From contig OZ024743.1 in the NCBI GenBank assembly GCA_964016885.1, positions 238,948,001-239,012,000 of the forward strand: 64,000 nucleotides of DNA. Direction: 5' to 3'. The notes beneath the pieces are model-generated. The model was not told the origin of the DNA, did not search any database, and saw only the letters and a program-made list of their open reading frames with translations. Origin of the DNA: Eledone cirrhosa (lineage: Eukaryota). Positions 2,256 to 63,246 of the stretch are shown piece by piece (the first letter of the stretch is position 1; each line of letters begins with the position of its first letter). The position numbers were made by a program, and so were the translations under genes.

Positions 2256-4000
2256 ATATTTATTAAAATAACAGATTAAAGTTTAAGCAAAGAATCGCTG
2301 CTTTCACCCTTAACGGGATCTTCTGAAACTAACAAAGTCAATCTGTAAACGCAGAACTGGATATTTCAAAAAACGTTGCAACCGGAGGAATACAGGAAGA
2401 CGATACTTTGGTTCGTGGTAACGTTCGCTGGCAAAGAACGGGAAAAAACGAATATTATACGTCATTAATAGGAGCGGTGAAAAACAATTACGCGCAAAGA
2501 CAGAACCACGTTTATGGTATAAAGGAGGTCGTAGACTAATGTTCTCTTAGGTGGTGCATAGAGACGTTCTCTGGCAATGAACGAAAAAAACGAAGATAAT
2601 ACGTCATATGTGGAGCGTGGAGAACAATAGCACGCAAAGTCAAAACCACGTAAATGGTATAGCAGAAGTTGTAGACTAAAATTCTAACTAGGAGACCGAA
2701 TGAATCTCCGCTACAGAGTTAAGAAGAAAGTAAATAAATACAATACAGAAGTAATAGAAATAAATAAATACATACACGCAAACAAATACGTACATACACA
2801 AGCATACGCAAAAACTTACCATAGGTATACAAAACGACGCACATATAAATATGTGTGTGTGTATGCGTGTATACAAATAAATAAATAATTATATAAACGT
2901 ACGTGCTTTTGTCTTTGCGTGCTATTGTTCTCCACGCTCCACATATGACGTATTATCTTCGTTTTTTTCGTTCATTGCCAGAGAACGTCTCTATGCACCA
3001 CCTAAGAGAACATTAGTCTACGATCTCCTTTATACCAAAAACGTGGTTCTGTCTTTGCGCGTAATTGTTTTTCACCGCTCCTATTAATGACCTATTATAT
3101 TCGTTTTTTCCCGTTCTTTGCCAGGGAACGTTTCCACGAACCAAAGTATCGTCTACCTGTCTTCCTCCGGTTGCAACGTTTTTTTAAATATCCAGTTCTG
3201 CGTTTACAGATTGACTTTGTTAGTTTCAGAAGATCCCGTTAAGGGTGAAAGCAGCGATTCTTTGCCTTTGCTTAAACTTTAATCTGTTATTTTAATAAAT
3301 ATATATATATATATATATATATATTTATTAAAATAACAGATTAAAGTTTAAGCAAAGAATCGCTGCTTTCACCCTTAACGGGATCTTCTGAAACTAACAA
3401 AGTCAATCTGTAAACGCAGAACTGGATATTTAAAAAAACGTTGCAACCGGAGGAAGACAGGAAGACAATACTTTGGTTCGTGGAAACGTTCCCTGGCAAA
3501 GAACGGGAAAAAAACGAATATTATACGTCATTATTTGGAGCGGTGAAAAATAATAACATACAAAGACAAAACGACGTTTATGGTATAAATGAAGTCGTAG
3601 ACTAATATTCTATTAGGTGGTTCGTGGAGACGTTCTTTGGCAATGAACGAAAAAAACAAAGATAATACGTCATTATGTGGATCGTTGAGAACAATTGCAC
3701 GCAAAGACAAAACCACGTAAATGGTATAACTGAAGACGAAGACTAAAATTCTAACTAGGAAACCGAATCATTCTCAGCTTCAGAGTTAAGAATAAAGTAA
3801 ATAAAATGCAGAGGTAAATGAAATTAAATAAATACATACACGCATCCATATACGTACATACACATTCATTCGCGAAAACACTCGCCATAGGTTTACAAAT
3901 ACAAGCACGTACACAAAAAAGCCCGCACGCACATACAGAACCCACACAACGCCTGTACCCGCACACATACGAACGTATACACCAAATACGCATAAAAATA
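2256..4000. mobile_element. PLE pseudo-LTR complex: minus copy 2256-2900, inverted copy 2908-3300, second minus copy 3322-4000
   Basis: Near-identical inverted and direct copies around (TA)n; internal ~140-bp direct repeat; hammerhead-like motif in each. Confidence 0.8.
3222..3278 (+). ncRNA. Hammerhead-like motif with U4A core (minus copies 2280-2330, 3345-3395)
   Basis: agttt CAGAAGA t ccc gttaa ggg t GAAA gca..tgc TT aaact. Confidence 0.55.
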
Positions 4001-22036: not shown

Positions 22037-22067
<31 letters not shown>

Positions 22068-22072
<5 letters not shown>

Positions 22073-22190
22073 AAAGAGACAGGGTCCCGACGGCTGAGCT
22101 CCGGCCGTTTCGACAGTTAGATCAGATACCCTAAGTATTAAGTAGTCTGGTACGTTACGGTCCACCCGGTATCTTACCACACCCTCTTGG

Positions 22191-22195
<5 letters not shown>
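22068..22195. mobile_element. Short inverted pseudo-LTR fragment between (TA)n tracts (family also at 36175-36295 and 43541-43762)
   Basis: Shared gaaacggccggagctcagccgtcggg and ggtccacc.ggtatcttaccacaccctct blocks. Confidence 0.75.
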
Positions 22196-22243
<48 letters not shown>

Positions 22244-28959: not shown

Positions 28960-30431
28960 ATAAAGTATAAAATATAAAGAGAAAACACAGGTAAGCATTA
29001 AGAGAAGGATTTTATCCAGGTATTTACGACCGTTTCATTGGTAAGTGCAACCTTATATTGCTATACTGCAAATAGCAGCCACTCAATCATAATTGTTGTT
29101 CACAGTCCAAATTTTCAAAATAGTGAGTAAGTTGCTCTTGAAATAGTTCTTAATATATAGAGAAAAACATTTTTTTAAAATTGTATCTACTACTATAGAG
29201 AGAGAGGAATTAGAAGGTGATGGGACAAATGGAATAGTACAGAGAGAGGGGAAGGGGTAAGAGTTAGGAAGTAGAGTGACAAACTGAGATGGAGGGAGGG
29301 GAAGAGGTGGAAGGATTCCTTGAGCAGTTTTGATATGTAGACTTCATGTCGTGGAATGTAGTGAGTTAAAGAGAATTAAATTGATCATAGTGGGAGAGAT
29401 GGATAGAGAGAGAGAGGTGGGGGGGGGGGTATAAAGAGATAAATATATATATATAAAATAAAGATAAAGATAATAGTTACAAAAATAAAAGCAAAGAAGG
29501 GGGAGAAAGAAGAAAAGAAAGATAGCCAAAAAGGGGAGGGAAGGAAGGAAGAAAACGTAGAAATAGTAGTGGAATGAAGGAGAAGGGAGGGATATAGGTA
29601 TTGGTTTTTGTGGGTAATTAAAAGGGTTTAGATACAACAAGATGGTATAAAGTCTAAGTATATGCAGTTTGTCAGTTGGTAGTAAGAAGTTAAGAGGTTT
29701 GATTTGCACTTGTGGTGCGAAAACTTCTCTTTGAGTCTACGTGACTTGTTTGATTTCGATGTTGTATTTCTATTTACCGTATACTTTGTAGTTCTATGCG
29801 TAAGTGCGTGTGTGCGTGTGTTTCTGGAGTTTGTGCTATGCGTGTTCGTGTGCGCTTTACGGAGGCTTTTATCTATATATTTTACTCTATCTAAGTGGCC
29901 TGCCTTGTTTAATGCGGTATTGTAGTATTCTGCATGCTCCTCGAAGATTTGTCGGTTAGACGAGAGGCGGGAGATCCTAAGAGATATGCTGCGTGGAATG
30001 GATTAATTATGGATAGTGGGTGGTTTGAGTTACAGTTGATGTATGCTAAGTTTTCATTAATCTTGTGAAAAGGTCTTAAAGTCCCGTATTTAGGTTAAGC
30101 GTCGCGTCTAGAAATTTAACTGGTTTAGTGCTATACTCATACGTTATGCTAAGGCCTAGGTTCCCGAGAGTATTTCCAATATTCTTACGGAGTCTTTCTA
30201 TGCTCTGGTTATTTAGGTTCTTAACTAGGAGAAGGGCGTCGTCTCTGTAGATTCCAGCGTGAAGTTCGCTAAACTCACTATTTTGAAAATTTGGACTGTG
30301 AACAACAATTATAATTGAGTGGCTGCTATTTGCAGTATAGCAATATAAGGTTGCACTTACCAATGAAACGGTCGTAAATACCTGGATAAAATCCTTCTCT
30401 TAATGCTTACCTGTGTTTTCTCTTTATATTT

Positions 30432-30440
<9 letters not shown>
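28960..30440 (-). mobile_element. 5'-truncated PLE: RT fragment (29870-30270), 3' UTR, inverted pseudo-LTRs (28960-29127 / 30272-30440)
   Basis: GIYRDDAL...GLSIT...VKFLDATLNL...YINCNSNHP..II..IP.SI..RIS.LSSN...F...A.YYN.AL. Confidence 0.9.
30279..30380 (+). ncRNA. Hammerhead with U3-A8 core (minus copy 29021-29122)
   Basis: tatt TTGAAAA t ttgg...ccaa t GAAA c ggtc g TA aata. Confidence 0.65.
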
Positions 30441-30477
<37 letters not shown>

Positions 30478-30526
30478 TTCGTTTCTGAATTTGTTTAGCA
30501 AGATTCTTTATCTGAAATCGTGTGTT

Positions 30527-30990
30527 GAAACCGATATTGTTATACTTTGGGAGGGTCATGTTGCCAATAAGAAACACACGCACCAGTTGCTTTCACTTCA
30601 ATTTATTATAATAAATTTATAATAAATTTATAAATTTATAAATTTCTGGTTGGTTTGTTCGTTCCACAACCAGATAGTTGTTTATATATAGTCATAGTTC
30701 TTTCGTCACACACTCTGTGACCTCTTTTGTTTCAAAATGGCGTAGGACAGAACAAAGGAGAGGCACAGAAACAAAGAAAGGAATCCCCAGTCACTGAAGA
30801 GGTCACGGAGTGTGTGACGAAAGAACTATGACTATATATAAACAACTATCTGGTTGTGGAACCAACCAACCAACCAGAAATTTATAAATTTATAAATTTA
30901 TTATAAATTTATTATAATAAATTGAAGTGAAAGTAACTGGTGCGTGTGTTTCTTATTGGCAACATGACCCTCCCAAAGTATAACAATATA
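30527..30990. mobile_element. Pseudo-LTR foldback (arms ~30527-30727 / 30797-30990)
   Basis: ~195-bp near-perfect inverted repeat ending in (TA)n. Confidence 0.9.
30789..30833 (+). ncRNA. Minimal type I hammerhead
   Basis: agtca CTGAAGA g gtcac ggagtgt gtgac GAAA g aa c TA tgact. Confidence 0.8.
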
Positions 30991-31009
30991 TATATATATA
31001 TATATATAT

Positions 31010-31740
31010 AATGTTATACTTGGGAATGGTCATGTTCGCAATAAGAAACACACGCACCAGTGCTTTCACTACAATTTATTATAAATTAAATTTATAAATT
31101 TAAGAAATTTATAAATTTCCGGTTGGTTGTTTGATTCCACAACCGGACGGTTATTCATATATTGCCAGGCCTGGAACAATGACGTGCCAGCGTTGTCTGG
31201 GCTTCGAATAGACCATAAGATGAACAGTGACCCAGTCACAGGCTCACCAACACGGCCACTCTGTGGAGCTAACATTGCTAGTAACTACAGACTTTCCTAC
31301 TTCCTCTCCCTGATCGTACGCCTCATCATTGAAATGTCCCCGGATACATGTGACAGCACGGAGGACCTCCTCAGTAGAATCAGCGAAAATAACCGATCTA
31401 AGGACCTAACAGACTGTATAATAGGTAGTATGGACGTAGTGTCCCTATACCCATCCATTAACGTGGATTCTGCTGTGGAGAAATGCGTAGAAATGATCAG
31501 TGAGAGCAATGTTGAATTCCGTGGGATTGATACCAGTGAGCTGGGACTCCTACTTAAACTTACATATAATAATGATTATCTAGATACGTATGACCTTAGC
31601 AACCTCTACACCATAAGGCCAGCAAGAGGCAGACCACCTATCATTACCTCAATGGCCAAGAAAACCCACACAGATAGATGGAATGGCTGGACCAGAGCCA
31701 TACGGACCCCCGAAAACCATGATGTACTAAAGAAAATAAA
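31010..31740 (+). pseudogene. PLE reverse transcriptase N-terminal fragment preceded by inverted pseudo-LTR piece (31010-31165)
   Basis: DHK...G.PTRPLCGA...LS.FLS...CDSTEDLL...IIGSMDVVSLYPSI. Confidence 0.8.
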
Positions 31741-32014
31741 TACACCCCAGTTAACACACACATATGTACACACCCACAGCCAAACACATACACCCACCCC
31801 ACACACACAACCAACCTAAACACCACATCTACACACCCACGCACCTCATATACCATAAACACATACACCACGCATACATATACTTCCTTACAAACCAAAC
31901 ACACATACGCGCACATACAGCAGGTAGAAGAAGATGAAGCTATGGAATGTAATCGTCTAAGTGAAGTATTTAATCAATGAGCGCACACAGCGACCCCACA
32001 GCAGGAGGTTAGAA

Positions 32015-36136: not shown

Positions 36137-36295
36137 CTCTATCTCTCTCTCTATATATATATATATATAAAAAGTATGACCCCGACGGCAGAGCTCAAGC
36201 CGTTTTGACGGCTATTTCAGGACTCTACTACCCTAAGTATTGAGTACTCTGGTGCGTTATGGTCCATCTGGTTCCTTACCACAATTCCTTTGTTT

Positions 36296-36326
<31 letters not shown>

Positions 36327-41899: not shown

Positions 41900-42045
41900 A
41901 TATATATAGAGATATATGTTTATATATATAGATATATGTTTATATATATATATATATATGTTTATATATATATATATAAGTATGCATACGTACACACATA
42001 TTACCCCCCCCCCCCACATATATATATATATATATATATATATAC

Positions 42046-42640
42046 AAATCTGTTGTAAACAAATGACCCGGATTAGAAGCTGTCCCGGTGACCGATGGCC
42101 AGCTGTTTGTTCAACACTCAGTGGTGCTAGCGCGAGAAATAACATTTTTATTTTATTATTAATATTCGGCAAGAGGGTGGTGGATTGGCAGTATCGGTAG
42201 AGGGTCGGACACCATGCTTTGACGCATAAAGTTATGCCCCTTTATGATCTGAGTTCAAATCCCGCCGAGGTTAACTTTGCCTTTCATCCTTACGGGGTCG
42301 ATAATATAAAGTACCAGTCACGCACTGGGCTCGATTTAATCGACTTTCCCCTCCCCCAAAATTGCTGTCCTTGTGCCTATATAAGAAATCGTTATTAATA
42401 TTCGGCAAAGCCAGCCGCAACTCGCTCGATATGCAGATGGGGCTACTCAGCTGATGTATACTTAAGAAAATACTATATATTTTCAACCATTCAACACATT
42501 GGGAGAGAGGTATGCAATCCAGATGAAGGGCAATCACCCAGAAACATGTTGATTGTTCCTCAAAGCCAGTGTTGAACAAGGAGGCGACGATCGGTCACCG
42601 GTACAGATTCTAATCTGGCTAGTTTGTTTACAAACGAATT
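42046..42640. mobile_element. MITE-like element with ~73-bp imperfect terminal inverted repeats
   Basis: 42046-42118 vs reverse complement of 42568-42640. Confidence 0.6.
42173..42391 (+). mobile_element. Full-length SINE (long variant) with 17-bp TSD
   Basis: ttattaatattcggcaa at 42156-42172 and 42392-42408. Confidence 0.93.
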
Positions 42641-42725
42641 GAACATTATTATTAATGTTCGATATAACCCATACGTACATATGTATAAGCATATATGTGT
42701 GTGTATACATATATATATATATATA

Positions 42726-43348
42726 AAGTAATGTAAGAATATTTTCGAAACAGCGAGTGGGTTTGAAATTATTAGAAATGTAAGCTATCGCCGTACTTTG
42801 ACTGAAGAAATTAAATAAATTATTTAGCCTGACAGTGGGGTTAAGAACCCTCGGAGAAATGGAAAAAGATGAGTATTGACGTCCATGGGAGTCGAACCCA
42901 CATCTTTGGTTATCCGGACCACTGTGCTACCATTTACACCAACACATCACCCGTCTTTTTCCATTCAAATTAGAAGCTATAAACATAGCGACTGTAATGT
43001 CAAGTAAAGTAAGAATATTTTCGAAACAGCGAGTGGGTTTGAAATTATTAATTATTAACCCACTAATTTTGAAATTAATAATTTCAAACCCACTCGCTGT
43101 TTCGAAAATATTCTTACTTTACTTGACATTACAGTCGCTAAGTTTATAGTTTCTAATTTGAATGGAAAAAGGTGGGTGATGTGTTGGTGTAAATGGTAGC
43201 ACAGTGGTCCGGATAACCAAAGATGTGGGTTCGACTCTCATGTACGTCAATACTCATCCTTTTCCATTTCTCCGAGGGTTCTTAACCCCACTCTCAGGCT
43301 AAATAATTTCTTTAATTTCTTTAGTCAAAATACGGCGATAGCTTACAT
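42726..43348. mobile_element. Foldback element of ~277-bp units, each with a tRNA-like cloverleaf, between (TA)n tracts
   Basis: Arms 42778-43052 / 43073-43348; 42726-42774 directly repeated at 43002-43050. Confidence 0.9.
43178..43249 (+). ncRNA. tRNA-like cloverleaf (minus copy 42877-42948); not a translational tRNA
   Basis: gatgtgt/gtacgtc acceptor, gtgt/gcac D stem, tggt-ccggata-acca, T arm gtggg-ttcgact-cccat (left-arm version). Confidence 0.8.
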
Positions 43349-43540
43349 ATATATATATATATATAGTAACTAATAAGCTCTGTAACCTACACAGAGCACT
43401 CTTTTTTCCTGTACCCTTCCGACGGAATTACTTCATTTATATATATATACAGATATGCATATATGTCTGTATATGCATACTTACTCTTATGTTATCAGCT
43501 GTGCTAGAGCGAGAAAATTCTTATTTAATATATATATATA

Positions 43541-43762
43541 TAACAAAGAGGGTGTGGTAAGATACCAGGTGGACCATAACGCACCAGAGTACTCAAAATG
43601 TAGGGTAATAGAGTGGGCAATATGAAAAGAATCAGGACCCCGACGGCTGAGCTCCGGCTGTTTCGACAGCGAGATCCGAGACGACAGCTAGATGTAGCAG
43701 TCTTTTCGGATCTAGCTGTCGAAACGGCCGGAGCTCAGCCGTCGGGGTCCTGGCTCTTTTCA
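43541..43762. mobile_element. Pseudo-LTR foldback with nearly complete hammerhead (43680-43750, plus)
   Basis: ..GACGA cagctagat...atctagctg tc GAAA cggc cggagctca gccg TC ggggtc; inverted copy 43541-43679. Confidence 0.75.
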
Positions 43763-43798
43763 TACACACACACGCACACAAACACACACACAAACACA

Positions 43799-51946: not shown

Positions 51947-54900
51947 TTAAAAAACAATTTTAAAGAGGACATGGGTCCCCCCTGCGTCGGGCCCATTAAC
52001 CGCGTCCTCCTAAAAAACTATCCCACCCCCTCCCCAAACACCCACACAACTCCAAGCTCCCCAACCACACAACACACTGATGCCCCCACACTTCCACAAA
52101 CCACCACCCCACCCAACAACCCATCCCCCACCCTAATGGAAATTGTGCAGCCCGATACCCGGGACGCAGAGAGGTAAGTGCCTTTTCTCTTCACCACCAA
52201 CATGGCTATGCTAAGAGTAGGCTGTTTAAATGCGCGTGGCCTGGGCTCAACTTGGAAGCAAGCAATGCTTCTAAATGACCTCAGGTCACAACGTATAGAT
52301 GTGATGGTTATTTGCGAGGCCCGGATCAGCAACGTGCGACAGCTGGCCCCCACCTTTGATGACTTTGAGATGCACGCATCTCTCTGTCAGCCCGGAGGTG
52401 GGGGTGGAGTTGTCGTTCTGCTGCAAAAACATCTGGGTCTCGCAACACAGATGGTACATTTGGACCCGGAGGGTCGACTAGTGGTTCTGGACCTTGGCAG
52501 TGGTAAAGGCGGAGCGTTTAGGTTGGTAGCCGCCTACGGCCCTTTCGGGTCAATGCGGCCGGACTTCTTCCATCGTCTGGAGACTTTTCTAGGGACGTCC
52601 CGCTCCTTGCTATTAGTGGGGGACTGGAATGGTATCCTAGATGCACGCTGGGACTACGTAGGGGCCTGCCCCGATAGAGAGGGGTGTAATAGCCTCAAAG
52701 GGTTAATCGGTCGATTTGACCTGGCCGATAGATATCGACTAGATTTTCCGACTGCGCCAACCTGGACTTGGGCAAATCGTAGCGGATCATCTAGGTCGTA
52801 CCTAGATAGGTTCTTAGTTAGAATTAAGGATAAGGACTTTTTAAGTTGTCCAAAAATGCGCATGGTTGGCTATTCACACCACAAATTAGTGACCTGCATG
52901 GTCGACCTTGACAGAACTCATAGTCAGGGCCCCGGTTACTGGAAGCTCAACTTGTCCTTGCCGGCAAGTAGAGCCTACAGGAATCGGATTAGTACGTTAG
53001 TTAAGGAACGGTTGACTGGAGCGATCGTCAACAGCAGGTGGTGGGTATCTCTAAAGAGAGAGATTAGAGTAGTCTCGATAGAATTTAGTAAGGTTCTAGC
53101 TGCGGATAGGAATAGGAAGGAAAGGGAGCTAATAGATAGAGTAGAAGAGGCAATTAGAAGCGGCGACGTGGCCAGAGTGCTAGCGTCGAGAACGGCTTTG
53201 AGCCAGTTTTTCGACGCGAAGCACGAAGGCTGCGTTGTCCGAAGTAAAATACGTGCTCTAGGGAACGAGGGGACCAAAGCTGTTAGCTGGGCCCGCGTGA
53301 CAGAGGCCAAGAGTGGAACTAAATCCACCATCCGGTCTTTGCGAGACCTGGATGGACGGGCGATTCTTGAGCCTAAGCAGATGTGTGAGGCCTTTCAAAG
53401 GCACTTTGCCCGACTGTTCGGGAGGGGCGGGGAGCCGGTTGGGAACGTGGACTTCGGTCCATACCTCGACGGCCTGCCGCGCCTCTCGGACAGGGAGGCG
53501 AAGTCCTGCGAGGAGCCGATTTCGGCCGCTGAGATAGAGGACGTGCTGAGCCAATGCGGCAAACGCAAATCCCCGGGTCTCGATGGTCTTCCTTACGAAT
53601 TATATCTAGCTATGCCGGACTTGTTCCCCGATCTCCTCGAGGCGGTCTACTGCAACTGGCAACAGAACGGGAGAATTCCCTGTACTGTGACCAAGGGCGT
53701 AGTCACGCTAGTGAGGAAGGACGAGAACAAGGGGGACGAAATAAGTAACTTCAGGCCCATAACTCTGCTAAATACAGAGTTACAGATTTTGGCCAAGGTG
53801 CTAGCAAAGAGGTTGGCGCTTGTCGTGGGCAACCTGGTGGGAGATGCGCAGACATGCGCTATCCTGTCCAGGTCCATCCATGACAACCTCCACCTCATGC
53901 GATACATCATAGAGATGGTTGGGAACGAACCCGGCTTTGGTGGGGCTCTGATCAACTTGGATCAATCTAAGGCGTTCGATAGGGTCGACCATGGTTACCT
54001 GGATGCGGTGCTAGCGGCGGCAGGCTTCGGACCCGTTTTCAGGGGCTGGATCACTGCTATGCACAGCAGCCGCATCTGCTCTAGGGTCAAGGTGAACGGC
54101 TACCTCTCGGAGCCGTTCAAAATCGCGCGGTCCATCCGACAAGGGTGCCCTCTCTCCTCCCTTCTGTATGTGTTGACTCTCGAGCCACTACTGCGGAAGT
54201 TGGAGTTGTTGCAGGGCATCCCTTTGGAACCGGGATTGCGGAAAGCGGTGTCGGCCTACGCCGATGACGTGACAGTAATGGTGTCGACGGCTTCCGAAAT
54301 CGAGGCGGTCGGCACCTTACTGGGGGAGTACGAAAAGTTCACAGGGGCTAAGCTGAACCGGGACAAGTCGATCGGTTTGCAACTCGGCACGTGGAGGGGC
54401 AGACCGATGCCCTCCGATGGCGTCGTCGGACGCTGGACGGAGGGCCCGGTGAAGTTGCTCGAGGTCTGGTTCGGACCGGACCTCCAGGTGGAGAAAAACT
54501 GGGCGGAGGTTACGAACAGTGTGTTTGCACTGACCCAGAAGTGGGCCAGTTGCAAACTATCCCTGAAAGGTCGGGCGGAGGTGGCGAACACCTACATAGC
54601 GTCCGTCATCTACTACCGCCTGACCGTAGTGCCCTGCCCAATGGAAACCGTCACCAAGATGGAGCGCGCGCTCTTCCAATTCCTTTGGAAGAGGCGGGCT
54701 CCTATGGTGAGGAGATCCATCTGCTGTCAACACCCTTCGAAAGGAGGGCTGGGGATGCCGTGGCTAATGATGCGTAAACACGCATTAAGGCTACGGCACC
54801 TCTACGTATTCCTCACCGGACAACCGGTGTGGGCCTCGTTTGTGAGACGAACCTTTCCCAGACTCGTCTCACTCACCGAGCTGCAATCCCGGGTCAAGCA

Positions 54901-55957
54901 AAGACCGAGAAAACTGGGCGCATGGCACACTGAGTGTGCCCAGGCGCTCACCGCCCTCTGGCAGGCGGATCCGGTTATCAGTGGAGACTCCACCGCAACA
55001 TTCTATAGAGGGCTGGTACGCAGCAGGTGCGACGACGCCCTCGGAGAAGCCCTAGACATGGAGGAGGACGAACTGGCCAGCCTGTTCGGTAGGACATTCA
55101 GCCCGTGACCTATGGACAACTTCCAGAAGTCCCTGGCCTGGCAGTGCTACCAAGGAGCTTTACCCGTTCGAGAAAGGCTCTACAGACACGGGCGCCCGGG
55201 TAGGGACCCCGCCAAAAAGATCTGTCCCAGATGCGTGTGCGACGAGGAAACCGTTGCACACGCATTGGTACACTGCTCGGGCGTAGCCGATCTGTGGGGC
55301 TATGTCGAACAACTGCTGTCAAGGGTGGGACCGATCCGGTTGACCACCGAGTCTATTGTAATGATCAAGCCGCCTCCCCCCTTCAAAGATGAAGCAGAGG
55401 CGGTGTTTCTGTGCGTAATAGCCATGGCGAAAGAGGTTGTATGGTGGACGCGTCTGAAAGGACTGAGGTCAGGTACCTTTCTCTCTGGCCAACAACTGGT
55501 CCGTTTCTTCCGATATCATTTCGGAAGAAGGATCAGGATGGAGAGAGAGGTGCTGCACCCCAGTCGTTTTTATGAAAGGTGGGTGAAAGTGGCGAGAATG
55601 GCCCGTGTGAATGGGCCTTCACTCTACATCAGACTATAGGTGAGGAAGATGAAAGACCAAGGGAGAACCCCTTCTCTGTGTTCCTGAGGAAAAGGGTTGC
55701 ACACTTTTTCGGGGGTGTGTGCGACCCCCCAAGGCGCCTCCTCTCTATTGAGGATTTTGTTATAAATTTCATTTTTTGTTATATTTTATAACAAAATCCT
55801 CTATTGAGGATTTTGTTATAATTCTATTTTTTGTTATATTTTATTTTATTTTTATATATTGTTATTGCCTCCTCCCTATTGAGGACGCCTTGTTTTGTAA
55901 ACTCCCCCCATTGTAATTGTCCCACTTTTGATGCCCTTGTGGCAAATAAAAGAAACA
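51947..55957 (+). mobile_element. L1/Tx1-clade LINE copy 1 (5'-truncated in ORF1)
   Basis: ORF1 tail, near-intact ORF2, 3' UTR with AATAAA; flanked by tatctatct. Confidence 0.95.
52202..55639 (+). CDS. LINE ORF2: APE endonuclease, reverse transcriptase, C-terminal CCHC finger; one internal TGA at 55106-55108
   Basis: LNARGL, GDWN, SYLDRF; KSPGLDGL, NFRPITLLN, LDQSKAFDRV, IRQGCPLS, YADD; CPRC...ETVAHALVHC. Confidence 0.95.
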
Positions 55958-57207: not shown

Positions 57208-58552
57208 GTTTATCAATAATAATGAAAGACCAATTGATGGCACAGAAATATTCTGTGTCGCCAATTGTCTACACCTTTTCCCCCACATACATGGGAAAAA
57301 GGAGCCAAAAAATAAAAATAACAAACATCACACCAAATGTAAACATCTGGAGGATAATAGCTGGTTTCAACAATTTTGATGAAGGCACAATAATTTCGGT
57401 AGGAAAGTCCTCCAGGGGCATATTCAACGGTACAAGCGTAGAAGTTCTGGTCCAAATGAGACCAGAACGGATAGCTCAAATACCACAACGTGTGCCTCTG
57501 GATGGAAATTCCTACATAAACATTTCTGTTGAGGGTAGGCAGCCTTCATGTTACCACTGTTTAAGCAATGGTCACCTGAGAGCTTCTTGTCCTCAATTAA
57601 CTGCATTGAAAAAAAAGGCACTACTGCCGACACCCAACATAACAACACAACCACCACCACCACCACCACCACCACCACCACAACAACAACAGCAACACAC
57701 AAAAACAAACCAAACTGCAAACACAGAACACAGTCCCACCCAACCCCTCCCCACCTAAAACAACTCCAGAAACACCCACACACATAACAGCTCCTCAAAA
57801 TGTACCTCTCCCCAACAACACGGATGAGGCCTCATCATCGTCACCCAGTGACGGTGAGGGAGAGCCTTTCCGACCAGTAAAAAGAAAAAAGAAAAGACAT
57901 AACACAAAACAAAAATGCAACAAACACACAAACACCAATACAAGCGACGCAAACAGCACAAACAAAAACACCGCCCCCTGAAAACGAAACACCTACTACA
58001 AAACGTAAACACACACAAGAACCACAGAAAAAAAGCAACACAACACAACAAAAATGTTACACCTACATAAATACTAACAATAAAACTTTAACAGACACCA
58101 TATATAAAAACCCTTCGGTGGATACCGAAGGGAAAACTTTTACACACTCTGCGGAGAATCCTAATCTTAAAAGGATTAGGATCTCCATGGACACACATAA
58201 ACAGTTAAAGGAAAAATTTCCTAACGACGTAGGTACCCCCTGCATCAAACCCTATAACCGCGTCCTTTTGAAATGTTTCCCCACCCCCACCCCAGACACT
58301 CCCACCCAAGACGCCCCCACCCCACCTGAAACCCCCTCCCCACCAAATATATGCGTCCCCACCCCACCAAAAAAAACCTCCAACACCCCCATGGAAATTG
58401 TGCAGTCTGGTCCCAGGAGACGAAGAGAAACCACCACCCATCAAACATACCCTCCAACACCCCATGGAAATTGTGCAGCCTGGTCCCCAGGAGACGAAAA
58501 GCCCGATACCCGGGACGCAGAGAAGTAAGTGCTTTTTCTCTTCACCACCAAC

Positions 58553-61500
58553 ATGGCTATGCTAAGAGTAGGCTGTCTAAATGCGCGTGGCCTGGGCTCA
58601 ACTTGGAAGCAAGCAATGCTTCTAAATGACCTCAGGTCACAACGTATAGATGTGATGGTTATTTGCGAGGCCCGGATCAGCAACGTGCGACAGCTGGCCC
58701 CCACCTTTGATGACTTTGAGATGCACGCATCTCTCTGTCAGCCCGGAGGTGGAGGTGGGGTTGTCGTTCTGCAGCAAAAACATCTGGGTTTCACAACACA
58801 GACGGTACATTTGGACCCGGAGGGTCGACTAGTGGTTCTGGACCTTGGCAGTGGTGAAGGTGGAGCGTTTAGGCTGGTAGTCGCCTACGACCCTTTCGGG
58901 TCAACGCGGCCGGACTTCTTCCATCGTCTGGAGACTTTTCTGGGGACGTCCCGCTCCTTGCTATTAGTGGGGGACTGGAATGGTATCCTAGATGCATGTT
59001 GGGAGTACGTAGGGGCCTGTCCCGATAGAGAGGGGTGTAACAGCCTCAAAGGGTTAATCGGTCGATTTGACCTGGCCGATAGATATCGACTAGATTTTCC
59101 GACTGCGCCAACCTGGACTTGGGTAAACCGCAGCGGATCATCTATGTCGTGCCTAGATAGGTTCTTAGTTAGACATAAGGATAAGGACTTTGTAAGTTGT
59201 CCAAAAATGCTCATGGTTGGCTATTCACACCACAAGTTAGTGGCCTGCATGGTCAACCTTGACAGTACGCATAGACAGGGACCCGGTTACTGGAGGCTCA
59301 ACTTGTCCTTACCGACAAGTAAGGCTTACAGGGACCGGATTAGCACTTTAGTTAAGGAGCGGTTGACGGGCGCCATCGTCAACAGCAGGTGGTGGAGATC
59401 TATAGAATTTAGTAAGGATTTAGCCTCAATTAGAAATAGGAAAAAAAGGGAGTTGGTAGATAGTGTAGATGAGGCAATTAGAAGCGGTGACGTGGCCAGA
59501 GTGCTAGCGTCGAGAACGGCCCTTGGCCAGTTCTTCGACGCAAAACACGAAGGCTGCATCGTCCGAAGCAAAATACGTGCTCTGGGAAACGACGGGACCA
59601 AAGCTGTTAGCTGTGCCCGCGTGACAGAAGCCAAATGAGGGAGTAGATCCACTATCCGGTCTTTGCGAGACTAGGATGGATGGGTGATCCTTGAACCTAG
59701 GCAGATGTGCGAGGCTTTTCAAAAGCACTTTGCCAGATTGTTCAGAAGGGGCGGGGAGCCGGTTGGGGAAGTGGACTTCGGTCCATACCTCGGCGGCCTG
59801 CCGCGTCTCTCGGTCAGGGAGGCGAAGTCCTGCGAGGAGCCGATATCAGCCGCTGAGATAGAGGACTTGCTGAGCCAATGCGCCAAACGCAAATCGCCGG
59901 GTCTCGATGGTCTCCATATAAACTATATCTAGCTATGCCAGACTTGTTCCTCAATCTCCTCGAGGCGGTCTATTGCAACTGGCAACAGAACGGGAGAATT
60001 CCCTGTGCTGTGACCAAGGGCGTATTCACGCTAGTGAGGAAGGACGAGAACAAGGGGGACGATATAAATAATTTCAGGCCCATAACTCTGCTAAATAGAG
60101 AGTTACAGATTTTGCCCAAGGTGCTAGCAAAGAGGTTGGCGCTTGTCGTGGGCTACCTGGTGGGAGATGCGCAGACATGTGCTATCCCGTCCAGGTCCAT
60201 CCACGACAACCTCCACCTCAAGCGATACATCATAGAAAGGGTTGGTGACGAACCCGGGTTTGGTGGGGCCCTGATCAACTTGGATCAATCAAAGGCGTTC
60301 GATAGGGTCGACCATGGTTACCTGGATGCGGTGCTAGCGGCGGCAGGCTTCGGACTCGTTTTCAGGGGCTGGATCAATGCTATGCATAGCAGCCGCATCT
60401 GCTCTAGGGTCAAGGTGAACGGCTACCTCTCGGAGCCGTTCGAAATCTCGCGGTCAATCCGACAAGGGTGCCCTCTCTCCTCTCTTCTGTATGTAATGAC
60501 TCTAGAGCAACTGCTGCGGAAGTTGGAGTTGTTGCAGGGCATCCCTTTGGAACCGGGATTGCGGAAAGCAGTGTCGGCCTACGCCGATGACGTAACAGTA
60601 ATGGTGTCGACAGCCTCGGAAATCGGAGCGATCGGCACCTTACTGGAGGAGTACGAAAGGTTTACAGGGGCTAGGCTGAACCGAGACAAGTAGATCGGTC
60701 TGCAACTCGGCACGTGGATGGGCAGATCGATGCCCTCCGATGGCGTCGTCGGGCGCTGGACGGAGGGCCCGGTGAAGTTGCTCGGGATCTGGTTTGGACC
60801 AGACCTCCAGGTGGAGAAGAACTGGGGTGAGGTAACGAACAGGGTGTTTGCACTGACCCAGAAGTGGGCCGAGTGCAAACTGTCCCTGAAAGGTCGGGCG
60901 GAGGTGGCGAACACTTATATAGCGTCCGTCATCTATTACCGCTTGACCGTCGTGCCTTGCCCAAGCGAAACGCTCGCCAAAAGGGAGCGCGCACTCTTCC
61001 AATTCCTTTGGATGAAGCGGACTCCTATGGTGATGAGATACATCTGCTGTCAACACACTTCGAAAGGAGGGCTGGGGATGCCGTGGCTAATGATACGGAA
61101 ACACGCATTAAGGCTACGGCACCTCCCGGTATTCCTCACCGGTCAACCGGTGTGGGCCCCGTTTGTGAGGCGAGCCTTTCCCAGACTCGTCTCGCTCACC
61201 GAGCTGCAATCCTGGGTCAAGCAAAGACCGAGAAAACTGGGCGCCTGGCACACCGAGTGTGCCCAGGCGCTCACGGCTCTCTAGCAGGCGGACCCGGCTG
61301 TCAGTGGAGAATCCACCTCGTCATTCTATAGAGGGCTGGTGGTTAGCAGGTGCGACGACGCCCTTGGAGAAGCCCTAGGCATAGAGGAAGACGAACTGGC
61401 CAACCTGTTCGGTAGAACATTCAGCCCGGAACCCATGGATAACTTCCAGAGGTCCCTGGCCTGGCAGTGCTACCGAGGGGCTCAGCCCGTTCGAGAAAGT

Positions 61501-61962
61501 CTCTACAGACACGGGCGCCCAGATAGGGATCCCTCGAAAAAGATCTGTCCCAGATGCGTGTGCGACGAGGAAACCGTTGCACACGCATTGGTACACTGCT
61601 CGGGCATTGCCGATCTGTGGGGCTATGTCGAACAACTGCTGTCAAGGGTGGGACCGATCCGGCTGACCACCGAGTCTATTGTAACGGTCAAGCCCCCCCC
61701 CCTCTTCAAAAACGAAGAAGAGGCGGTGCTTCTGTGCGTAATAGCCATGGCGAAAGAGGTTGTATGGTGGACGCGTCTGAAAGGACTGAGGTCAGGCACC
61801 TTTCTCTCTGGCCAACAACTGGTCCGTTTCTTCCGATATCATTTCGGAAGAAGTATCAGGATGGAGAGAGAGGTGCTGCACCCCAGCCGTTTTTATGAAA
61901 GATGGGTGAAAGTGGCGAGAATGGCCCGTGTGAATGGGCCTTCACTCTACATCAGACTATAG
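58553..61962 (+). pseudogene. LINE ORF2 pseudogene (copy 2)
   Basis: Colinear with 52202-55639; ORF pieces 58529-59638, 59684-59932, 59878-60693, 60718-61284, 61339-61962. Confidence 0.95.
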
Positions 61963-63246
61963 GTGAGGAAGATGAACGATCAAGGGAGCACCCCCTCTCT
62001 GTACTCCTGAGGAGAAGGGTTGCACACTTTTTTCGGGGGTGTGTGCGACCTCCCAAGGCGCCTCCTCCCTATTGAGGATTTTGTTATTAAATTTATTTTT
62101 GTTATATTTTATATATTATTTTATATCTTGTTATTGCCTCCTCCTTATTGAGGACGCCTTTTTATGTAAACTCCCCCCATTGTACTTGTCCCCCTCTTTG
62201 ATGCCCTGGTGGCAAATAAAAAGAAAGTTATCTATCTGTATGTAATGTCCTGGTGGTAAATAAATAGAAAGTTATCTATCTGTATGTATGTATGTATGTA
62301 TGTATGTATGTATGTATGTATGTATGTATGTATGTATGTATGTATGTATGTATGTATGTATGTATGTATGCATGTATGTGTGTGTGTGTGTGTGAGTGTG
62401 TGTGTGTGTGTATACATTCTGCTCGCTCCATTCAGCTAATCTTTTTGTAGAATAAATCAGCATTTTGTGCTAGATTAAGGTAAAATGTAGCCGTTGGAAA
62501 TTAAAGATCTATAAGGCTTTCATATTCTAACCATGAATGATCATTTCTATGTTTGTTGATTTCGTCAGTAATATATATTTCGTAATGTTATGCTTGTTTG
62601 AAAGAAATGTCTTAATTTTCAGTTAAGAATGAAAGAGAACAAGTGATGATAGAGTGATGATAGAGTATGTATGCATGGTCCCGTAACTCCTGGTAGATTC
62701 GTACCGGTACCGCATTGACATACGGAATTTTAAGACTGGTGGAGCCCATCCCTCTCCAGGCCTGAGTACAGCAGATTTCTTCCAGAGAAAGATAGAGAGA
62801 GGGGGGAAATGAGAAAGAAATATAGAGGAAGAATCGAAACTCAGTACTAAACTGGCACTTTTTTTTATCGACCTCGAAAGGATGAAAGGTAAAGTTGACC
62901 TCGATGGGATTTGAACTCAGAGATGATAGAGTGATGAGTGGTAAATTAATTCCAGATAAACATTTCAACGGTACTCACAGGTCTTTGTTTTAGCTTCATA
63001 TTATTGTTCAGAATCAGATTGATAGAGGAATAGCAAAACAAAGAAATATCAAGAAAACCAATACGGTAGTCATATCGTGTTTACATTTTGGCTGTAGGCA
63101 AGCATCAATTCAAGCATTGCTGAAAAATGTTTTTCCTATCTTCTTACGAGACCCTGCACAAAATTTAATTGACGAGGGTAGAGCAGAAGAGGAGATTGTG
63201 TTTTTGGTCATTCGTCTAACGTATTTCTTTTACGTGGAAAGCTTTG

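Follow-up and report, generated by a model that had tools for sequence, protein, structure and literature searches.

Within the window, by which we mean the whole stretch of 64,000 nt that was analyzed, positions 42708 to 43365 hold an element with no ORF that is built from tandem and inverted copies of a short unit (Table 1). An inverted repeat of 281 nt (42773-43053 and 43073-43353, 95% identity) is accompanied by a direct repeat of 54 nt at a spacing of 276 nt (42721-42774 and 42997-43050), and both repeats are bounded by (TA)n tracts, an architecture already recognized in the preliminary description. We correct its unit length to 276 nt at this locus and 271 nt in the family, given that a 5-nt duplication unique to the locus among 33 aligned units accounts for the greater length. 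A 72-nt cloverleaf sits in the middle of the unit and is enclosed by a complementary flank of about 17 bp, hereafter the mount; both had been noted before, and we found the flank in both arms and the cloverleaf with ARAGORN as well as with the Rfam tRNA model (38.5 and 37.6 bits, gathering score 29). The anticodon loop at the locus reads C32, C33, GGA, T37, the variable loop has 4 nt, and a T5 run lies 9 to 13 nt 3' of the cloverleaf, within the mount. Rfam microRNA matches at the locus fell under their own gathering scores and were rejected as foldback artefacts.

Table 1. Features of the locus (window positions) and tRNA-Gln-like gene copies elsewhere in the genome (locus positions)
Feature	Position	Strand	Remarks
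(TA)n target tract, left	42708..42725	.	read directly
Left arm, full unit plus ~49 nt of the next unit ("tail")	42726..43053	- (tRNA sense)	ends at 3' site 2 in (TA)n
Predicted 7-bp hairpin across the unit junction	42750..42795	-	encloses 3' site 1, before site 2
Mount 3' strand, left arm, with T5	42858..42874	-	complementary repeat
Cloverleaf, left arm, 72 nt, non-decoding loop, D arm tRNA-Gln-like	42877..42948	-	ARAGORN, Rfam tRNA
Mount 5' strand, left arm	42949..42965	-	complementary repeat
Head-to-head junction filler, 19 nt	43054..43072	.	short unit pieces; read directly; 43038-43094 repeat, period 30
Right arm, one inverted unit	43073..43348	+	ends at 3' site 1 in (TA)n; 5'-to-5' with left arm
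Mount 5' strand, right arm, purine-rich	43161..43177	+	complementary repeat
Cloverleaf, right arm, 72 nt, A box and B box, A58 = 43234	43178..43249	+	ARAGORN, Rfam tRNA
Mount 3' strand, right arm, pyrimidine-rich, T run = T4 here	43252..43268	+	complementary repeat
(TA)n target tract, right	43348..43365	.	read directly
Amber tRNA-Gln-like copies	L225:1002-1073; L226:1002-1073, 2956-3027; L227 likewise		acceptor 5' strand and anticodon stem partly mismatched

Copy number and insertion anatomy

The element occurs in several thousand copies in the 3.0-Gb genome, and four subfamilies were resolved, with units of 271, 290, 259 and 260 nt. A DNA search of the genome gave 2887 candidates, 40 of which were scored. 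Exact matches to patterns of 17 to 22 nt numbered 1549 for the T arm; the 3' part gave 2241 in subfamily A and 4907 in subfamilies B to D (units of arrays included), compared to 0 for control patterns read backwards. The loci chosen by pattern were drawn among the matches listed, and most of them lie within the first 165 Mb of contig C1. Set A comprises 80 loci picked by the subfamily A 3' pattern, with 133 arms. Positions in the unit (u1-271) refer to the majority of the 33 aligned units, whose mean identity to it is 98.3%, with the tRNA at u98-169, A58 at u154 and T5 at u178-182.

Arms terminate in TA/CA tracts in 125 of the 133 cases in set A, with 53 of these 3' ends at site 1 (u258-12), 67 at site 2 (u35-50) and 5 elsewhere. 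The two sites are about 40 nt apart and bound the optional tail. Permuted start points, for which the preliminary description had suggested looking, were not seen among these copies; the 3' ends are fixed at the two sites. Adjacent inverted pairs were joined head-to-head (5' to 5') in 90/90 instances across all fetched loci. Both outer ends lay at a site in 67 of 84 foldbacks, the other 17 having an end outside the sites, and in 64 of those 67 the pair used one site per arm, where 50% is expected (p 3e-16). Partial tandem copies form pseudo-LTR-like repeats with seamless tandem periods. Partial tandems, an inverted 5'-truncated arm, a tail of 30 to 40 nt and microsatellite targets are described as hallmarks of Penelope-like elements (PLEs) in the accessible text of PMC8557442. 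Given that the hammerhead-bearing repeats of the window share the orientation of the element, we take the tRNA strand to be the template.

Two chimeric foldbacks (L009 and L011), in which the element is joined head-to-head to the 3' ends of other TA-ended families, are expected if one machine copies both families. An autonomous element with a 1257-aa frame, found at L288 (G000:C3 ~199.33 Mb) and at window positions 30273-31819, has the same layout, with two 3' ends 58 nt apart and an inverted arm. Its repeat contains a hammerhead motif, a first look gave 11,246 candidates in the genome, and from its motifs we presume it to be a PLE; Pfam assigned no family to the PLE fragments. A second, endonuclease-bearing PLE family gave 67,473 candidates. 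No autonomous PLE with a 3' end shared with the element was found in 914 kb of fetched DNA and the two PLE families, the best match being antisense with E 0.04. The earlier proposal of a non-autonomous, PLE-mobilized element is borne out by the TA/CA ends, the head-to-head pairs and the site usage, although the partner was not found, and these features of the copies make it very probable that the element is a non-autonomous PLE client.

Long arrays invite the reading that this is instead an ordinary tRNA-derived SINE, MITE or satellite fragment mistaken for a PLE client. One array of 10.3 kb is flanked by TA at either end and has the usual 3' end, another of about 6.5 kb has an inverted head of 391 nt, and a subfamily B satellite of at least 70 kb contains at least 243 units (G000:C28:19508000-19577999; L110, L111, L321-L325); the 17-bp mount also resembles a short inverted repeat. 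However, the smaller arrays do not differ from the dispersed copies in their TA flanks and 3' sites, and the mount is internal, at no terminus in the loci read. The tRNA stands at no fixed 5' end, no A tail is present, and no LINE-like tail was seen in the copies, whose TA tracts would mask any target-site duplication. The inverted arms are fixed in polarity but vary widely in length, so that terminal inverted repeats are not fixed. Already weakened by the TA/CA ends, the head-to-head pairs and the one-site-per-arm foldbacks, a SINE, MITE or satellite origin appears extremely improbable to us.

Other repeats of the window were recorded alongside. A TA-ended family at 43542-43764, 22054-22213 and 36152-36309 is abundant (86 ends in one cluster) and forms foldbacks; it had no hammerhead match in the window scan and supplies the other arm of the chimeric foldback L009. 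An element at 42040-42646 has inverted ends of 79 nt (78%) around a copy of a tRNA-derived SINE at about 42174-42398. A LINE with endonuclease and RT domains is present in two tandem copies (52149-55790 and 58500-62113, 91.6%), the first with a 976-aa frame.

The mounted cloverleaf and its conservation

The cloverleaf scores 38 to 44 bits, whereas a true tRNA-Gln scores 67.7; the two have 38 of 72 bases in common, chiefly in the D arm. Its anticodon loop differs among the subfamilies, given that C33 is found only in A, B and D have T33, C reads CGA, and T37 is present throughout. The preliminary description had argued from C33 and the lack of a long variable arm that this is no translational tRNA; this stands at the locus, but C33 is a feature of subfamily A and not of the family. 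A functional tRNA gene would have U33, a purine at position 37, a stable anticodon and an isotype-matching arm, a combination that the cloverleaf does not show. Variable columns are nevertheless far fewer in the cloverleaf and mount than in the spacer (13/108 versus 86/193; p 2e-9, a generous value for four related sequences). Judged from this pattern among the copies, the cloverleaf is under selection and is not a decoding tRNA.

The 17 bp of the mount are paired in 89% of cells in 14 copies, and its changes are one-sided only; most of them replace an A that faces U by G, so that pairing is preserved on the tRNA strand but not on the other. The covariation proposed earlier as a check on the fold was absent; in these 14 copies no two-sided covariation rose above shuffles for the cloverleaf and mount (474/500 and 411/500). 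In the 7-bp hairpin that spans the unit junction, one pair is compensatory between subfamilies (11 copies; 12/500 shuffles), and we consider this predicted structure a candidate signal for the reverse transcriptase. The top of the acceptor is distorted in subfamily B, the minimum-energy fold of the locus differs from the cloverleaf, and folding z-scores at the locus (-2.1 sense, -2.5 antisense) do not distinguish the strands. The fold, like the methylation and cutting discussed below, is inferred from DNA copies.

Consistent with the preliminary description, no hammerhead pattern was found within the element in the window scan or on either strand of the four subfamily majorities. The only look-alike, antisense and confined to a single copy of the locus, is missing from the subfamily majorities and was rejected.

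Two observations concern tRNA-Gln genes. In tRNA-Gln(TTG) genes at L223 and L225, six leader bases and the first three tRNA bases are the same nine bases that end the mount 5' strand, a post hoc match suggesting that the element may have originated from a tRNA-Gln(TTG) gene with its leader. Separately, a tandem tRNA-Gln cluster at G000:C1 ~168.22 Mb contains repeated copies of a tRNA-Gln-like gene whose anticodon is CTA (amber) (Table 1).

Breakpoints in the tRNA and the template RNA

We scored the 5' breakpoints of 120 set A arms, leaving out 13 of the 133 in which the TA end was absent or identity was below 85%. Among 78 arms reaching u163, 53 ended within u152-163, the T-arm zone, compared to 2.6 expected from background, and none of 26 stopped in the adjoining 12 nt (u140-151). 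The result was similar when one arm per locus was counted (31/50) and in single arms (14/21). The pattern was repeated in 62 more loci of subfamilies B to D, for which 84 arms out of 95 were scored (three arms are counted twice owing to an overlap between two loci): 43 of 60 arms stopped in the zone compared to 1.8 expected, and of the 17 that went on, none stopped within the following 12 nt. Arms from either start site stopped there (28/35 and 22/36); given that the position is the same from both sites, the stop is tied to position and not to length, and a fixed cDNA length was rejected as its source.

The mode of the T-arm stop lies 5 to 6 nt 3' of A58, not 1 nt, and its 5' boundary coincides with A58 to within 2 nt, with a 4-nt palindrome and AT microhomology at the mode blurring the exact base. 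Among copies that continue past this point, A58 itself was changed, mostly from A to T, in 47 copies per 1549 exact copies compared to 22 and 20 for two control A's (p 1e-4), an excess measured against these two sites only. The modification m1A58 is reported to stop a retroviral RT (PMC13191261) and to be added to pre-tRNAs (bioRxiv 10.64898/2026.05.17.725798; PMC10275265) in the accessible portions of these sources. On the strength of the 5' breakpoints together with the A58 changes, we regard it as quite probable that the template RNA is handled as a tRNA, and it is likely that its T arm was folded and methylated at A58. A stop at the entry to the T stem, caused by a folded elbow or a bound protein, would fit equally well and would also imply tRNA-like handling. 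In another locus (L018), the 5' junction joins the T loop of the element to another sequence, a tRNA-derived SINE, at the start of its T arm. Both run in the same orientation, as if the template had been switched from one tRNA-like RNA to another.

Could the cloverleaf be a mere passenger that was picked up from a SINE or a tRNA gene, with the breakpoints set by local hairpins, microhomologies or a few truncated masters? Short palindromes and AT are present at both hot spots, about nine set A foldbacks have one symmetric junction in common, and in subfamilies this young the conservation rests on few changes. However, no comparable peak occurs at the longer palindromes found elsewhere in the unit, and the breakpoints range from A58-2 to +9, involve many partners and are seen again in second periods and in all four subfamilies. 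Moreover, the stop strips the cloverleaf from about 70% of copies, yet the cloverleaf is their best conserved part. We consider a passenger cloverleaf very unlikely.

A weaker peak lies at tRNA +1. There, 6 of 24 passes stopped in set A and 1 of 13 in the B to D set alone. In a pooled analysis of 280 distinct arms from 209 fetched loci, with zones picked after viewing set A, 11 of 84 ended within 2 nt of +1 compared to 1.3 expected, and 18 of 85 ended in the 12-nt zone compared to 3.65, so that roughly one pass in five stops near +1; AT microhomology blurs this peak as well. A 10-nt zone scored for RNase Z cleavage after N73 had 12 ends compared to 3.9 expected in set A and 3 compared to 2.8 in subfamilies B to D, and the acceptor 3' strand is still joined to the trailer in most truncated copies. 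The host-nuclease processing proposed in the preliminary description is thus supported to a moderate degree for RNase P at +1; RNase Z cleavage at +73 was not adopted as the main processing step given that its excess is confined to subfamily A. In the region from the D stem to the anticodon arm (tRNA 16-44), the pooled loci also have somewhat more 5' ends than expected (21 compared to 11.3), possibly from further modifications or local palindromes.

The bases upstream of +1 bear on whether the cloverleaf was kept mainly as an internal Pol III promoter, with methylation and RNase P trimming as side effects. Transcription would start a few bases upstream of +1, leak once through T5 and end at the next T5, giving a terminally redundant RNA of 1.35 units. 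The A and B boxes are intact, and T5, at the usual terminator position, is invariant in the four subfamily majorities even where its pairing partner has turned to G; subfamilies A and B have 10 to 11 T3 runs on the sense strand and no T4 outside T5. In the pooled loci, 5 ends lie 3 to 9 nt upstream of +1 compared to 2.0 expected, and the leader match to tRNA-Gln(TTG) genes points the same way. Sm-alpha, which is transcribed by Pol III, provides a tRNA-Gln-derived, hammerhead-bearing precedent. However, an efficient T5 would deprive the RNA of both RT start sites, most arms extend upstream of +1, only 2 stops compared to 3.7 expected were found 10 to 23 nt upstream of it, and subfamilies C and D have a T4 that is read through. 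A promoter would also require the boxes alone, and neither the stems nor the outer mount pairs beyond T5. We regard the promoter account as the main rival of the reading favored below, though as rather unlikely in itself.

About four in five passes cross +1, with the length unchanged in 62 of 63 segments, which indicates that most templates were continuous (uncut) there, as multimers or circles. A circular template would arise if RNase P cut each +1, the mount held the monomer ends as a nicked helix, and a host ligase sealed them into a 271-nt circle that was copied more than once. Animal retrozymes form circles, according to the accessible text of PMC7229834. In the element, the nick would fall between the mount and the acceptor stem. 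In 30 matched loci, successive periods of one arm diverge by 4.06% and two arms by 4.00%, compared to 4.5 to 12.8% between neighboring units within arrays; successive periods share 16 rare variants in 7 loci compared to 2.2 by coincidence; and the 5-nt duplication at our locus is present in the unit, tail and inverted arm alike. Half of the shared variants (8/16) come from one locus, though, and an equal pattern would be produced by young arrays that are homogeneous or by template jumps within one RNA. Ligation poses a further difficulty, given that RNase P leaves a 5'-phosphate and a 3'-OH whereas RtcB joins a different end chemistry. The similarity of periods fits repeated copying of one unit but is no proof of a circle, and we consider a circular template unlikely.

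The reading that we favor, with moderate confidence and from the sequence of the copies, is that the element is a protein-free tandem PLE-type retroelement with a tRNA cloverleaf on a 17-bp stem, whose RNA would be treated as a pre-tRNA, with RNase P replacing the hammerhead in its role. A PLE protein dimer would nick both strands of a TA tract and prime on a single RNA at two internal sites. Reverse transcription would mostly come to a halt at the T arm, with m1A58 the most likely obstacle, after which the cDNA ends would be cut back by 4 to 5 nt to the nearest microhomology and joined. The mount would work like the leader-trailer helix of MALAT1, letting RNase P cut at +1 in some units, so that unit-scale RNAs would be freed from longer read-through or array transcripts, and the trailer would mostly not be separated by RNase Z. 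A bolder version, which extends this reading to a circle and which we think quite unlikely, would make the element a ribozyme-free retrozyme in which RNase P cuts each cloverleaf, the mount splints a 271-nt circle, and a PLE dimer copies it, starting at a separate site for each of the two strands. The truncated insertions, thousands in number, would then preserve m1A58 as a fossil trace across the genome.

Relation to known retroelements and significance

The element shares tRNA-like A and B boxes, a non-autonomous nature and thousands of copies with tRNA-derived SINEs. SINEs start with a tRNA head and finish in a LINE-type tail, whereas the element has a tandem unit and internal priming, and most of its copies are without the tRNA 5' half. 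Among PLEs, its hallmarks are those of the Naiads and the Chlamys MRC1 clients; Naiads are without a hammerhead, and non-autonomous head-to-tail members are known (PMC8557442). No tRNA part is described in the accessible text of that paper, and the clients described there resemble the 3' end of their partner, whereas no partner was found here. The PLE Poseidon PAc of Anolis likewise has two internal RT start sites that define its tail, as shown in vitro, with both strands of AT-rich DNA cut and extended and a dimer predicted (PMC11167929). Poseidon PAc, as far as the accessible text goes, is autonomous, bears a hammerhead and has no strand preference of sites in vitro, compared to the different sites per arm observed here.

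Animal non-LTR retrozymes resemble the element in size range, in small non-coding tandem units that occur as monomers to multimers, and in their proposed mobilization by PLEs, but have a type I hammerhead per unit and circles that have been shown, in the accessible parts of PMC7229834 and bioRxiv 10.64898/2026.07.22.740005; the element has no hammerhead. It does have the tandem non-coding units of a few hundred nucleotides that characterize a retrozyme. With neither the hammerhead of a retrozyme nor the fixed tRNA head of a SINE, it is a member of neither class, and as its copies suggest, it works like a retrozyme. Sm-alpha and Sj-alpha of Schistosoma, like the element, have a tRNA-Gln-related part in a small high-copy retroposon of retrozyme type. 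Sm-alpha has a hammerhead and the element has none, and neither a mounted cloverleaf nor T-arm truncation was seen described in the accessible text (PMC2770079). Outside mobile DNA, the mascRNA of MALAT1 is also a non-decoding tRNA mimic in a longer RNA, with an A-rich leader that pairs with a U-rich trailer, extends the acceptor stem and promotes RNase P cleavage (PMC8457004). MALAT1 mascRNA belongs to the end of a single-copy lncRNA, has a 7-bp extension, needs a 5' bulged A and is then cut by RNase Z, according to the accessible text of that paper, whereas the element has 17 bp and a 3' bulge, is mobile and mostly keeps its trailer.

Already known are PLE clients that are non-autonomous, PLEs that have no hammerhead, tandem retrozymes and, in Sm-alpha, a hammerhead-bearing retroposon derived from tRNA-Gln. 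The distinctiveness implied by the preliminary description holds in part, given that PLEs without a hammerhead (Naiads, PMC8557442) and the tRNA part (Sm-alpha, PMC2770079) each have precedents. The freely accessible literature covered yielded no ribozyme-free PLE client with a mounted cloverleaf, no T-arm-limited truncation and no one-site-per-arm foldbacks. The element is not described in the accessible text of an octopus repeat paper (PMC13282606) or an oyster genome paper (PMC9679248), and the supplements and repeat libraries of these papers may contain it as an unclassified SINE. What appears new here, as read from the copies, is the pile-up of 5' truncations in the T arm, the weaker +1 peak and the excess of changes at A58.

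In annotation, such copies will inflate tRNA-Ser counts. Tandem and inverted insertion by PLEs is an open problem, and the use of different start sites per arm would fit a dimer that primes twice on one RNA, with the strong T-arm stop marking the cDNA ends before joining. tRNA modification would be readable from genomic copies, which may offer a cheap route to modified templates in other repeat families. If our favored reading is true, a retroelement has swapped its self-cleaving ribozyme for host tRNA processing, which would widen the class of retrozymes and PLE clients, and searches based on the hammerhead would overlook members of it.
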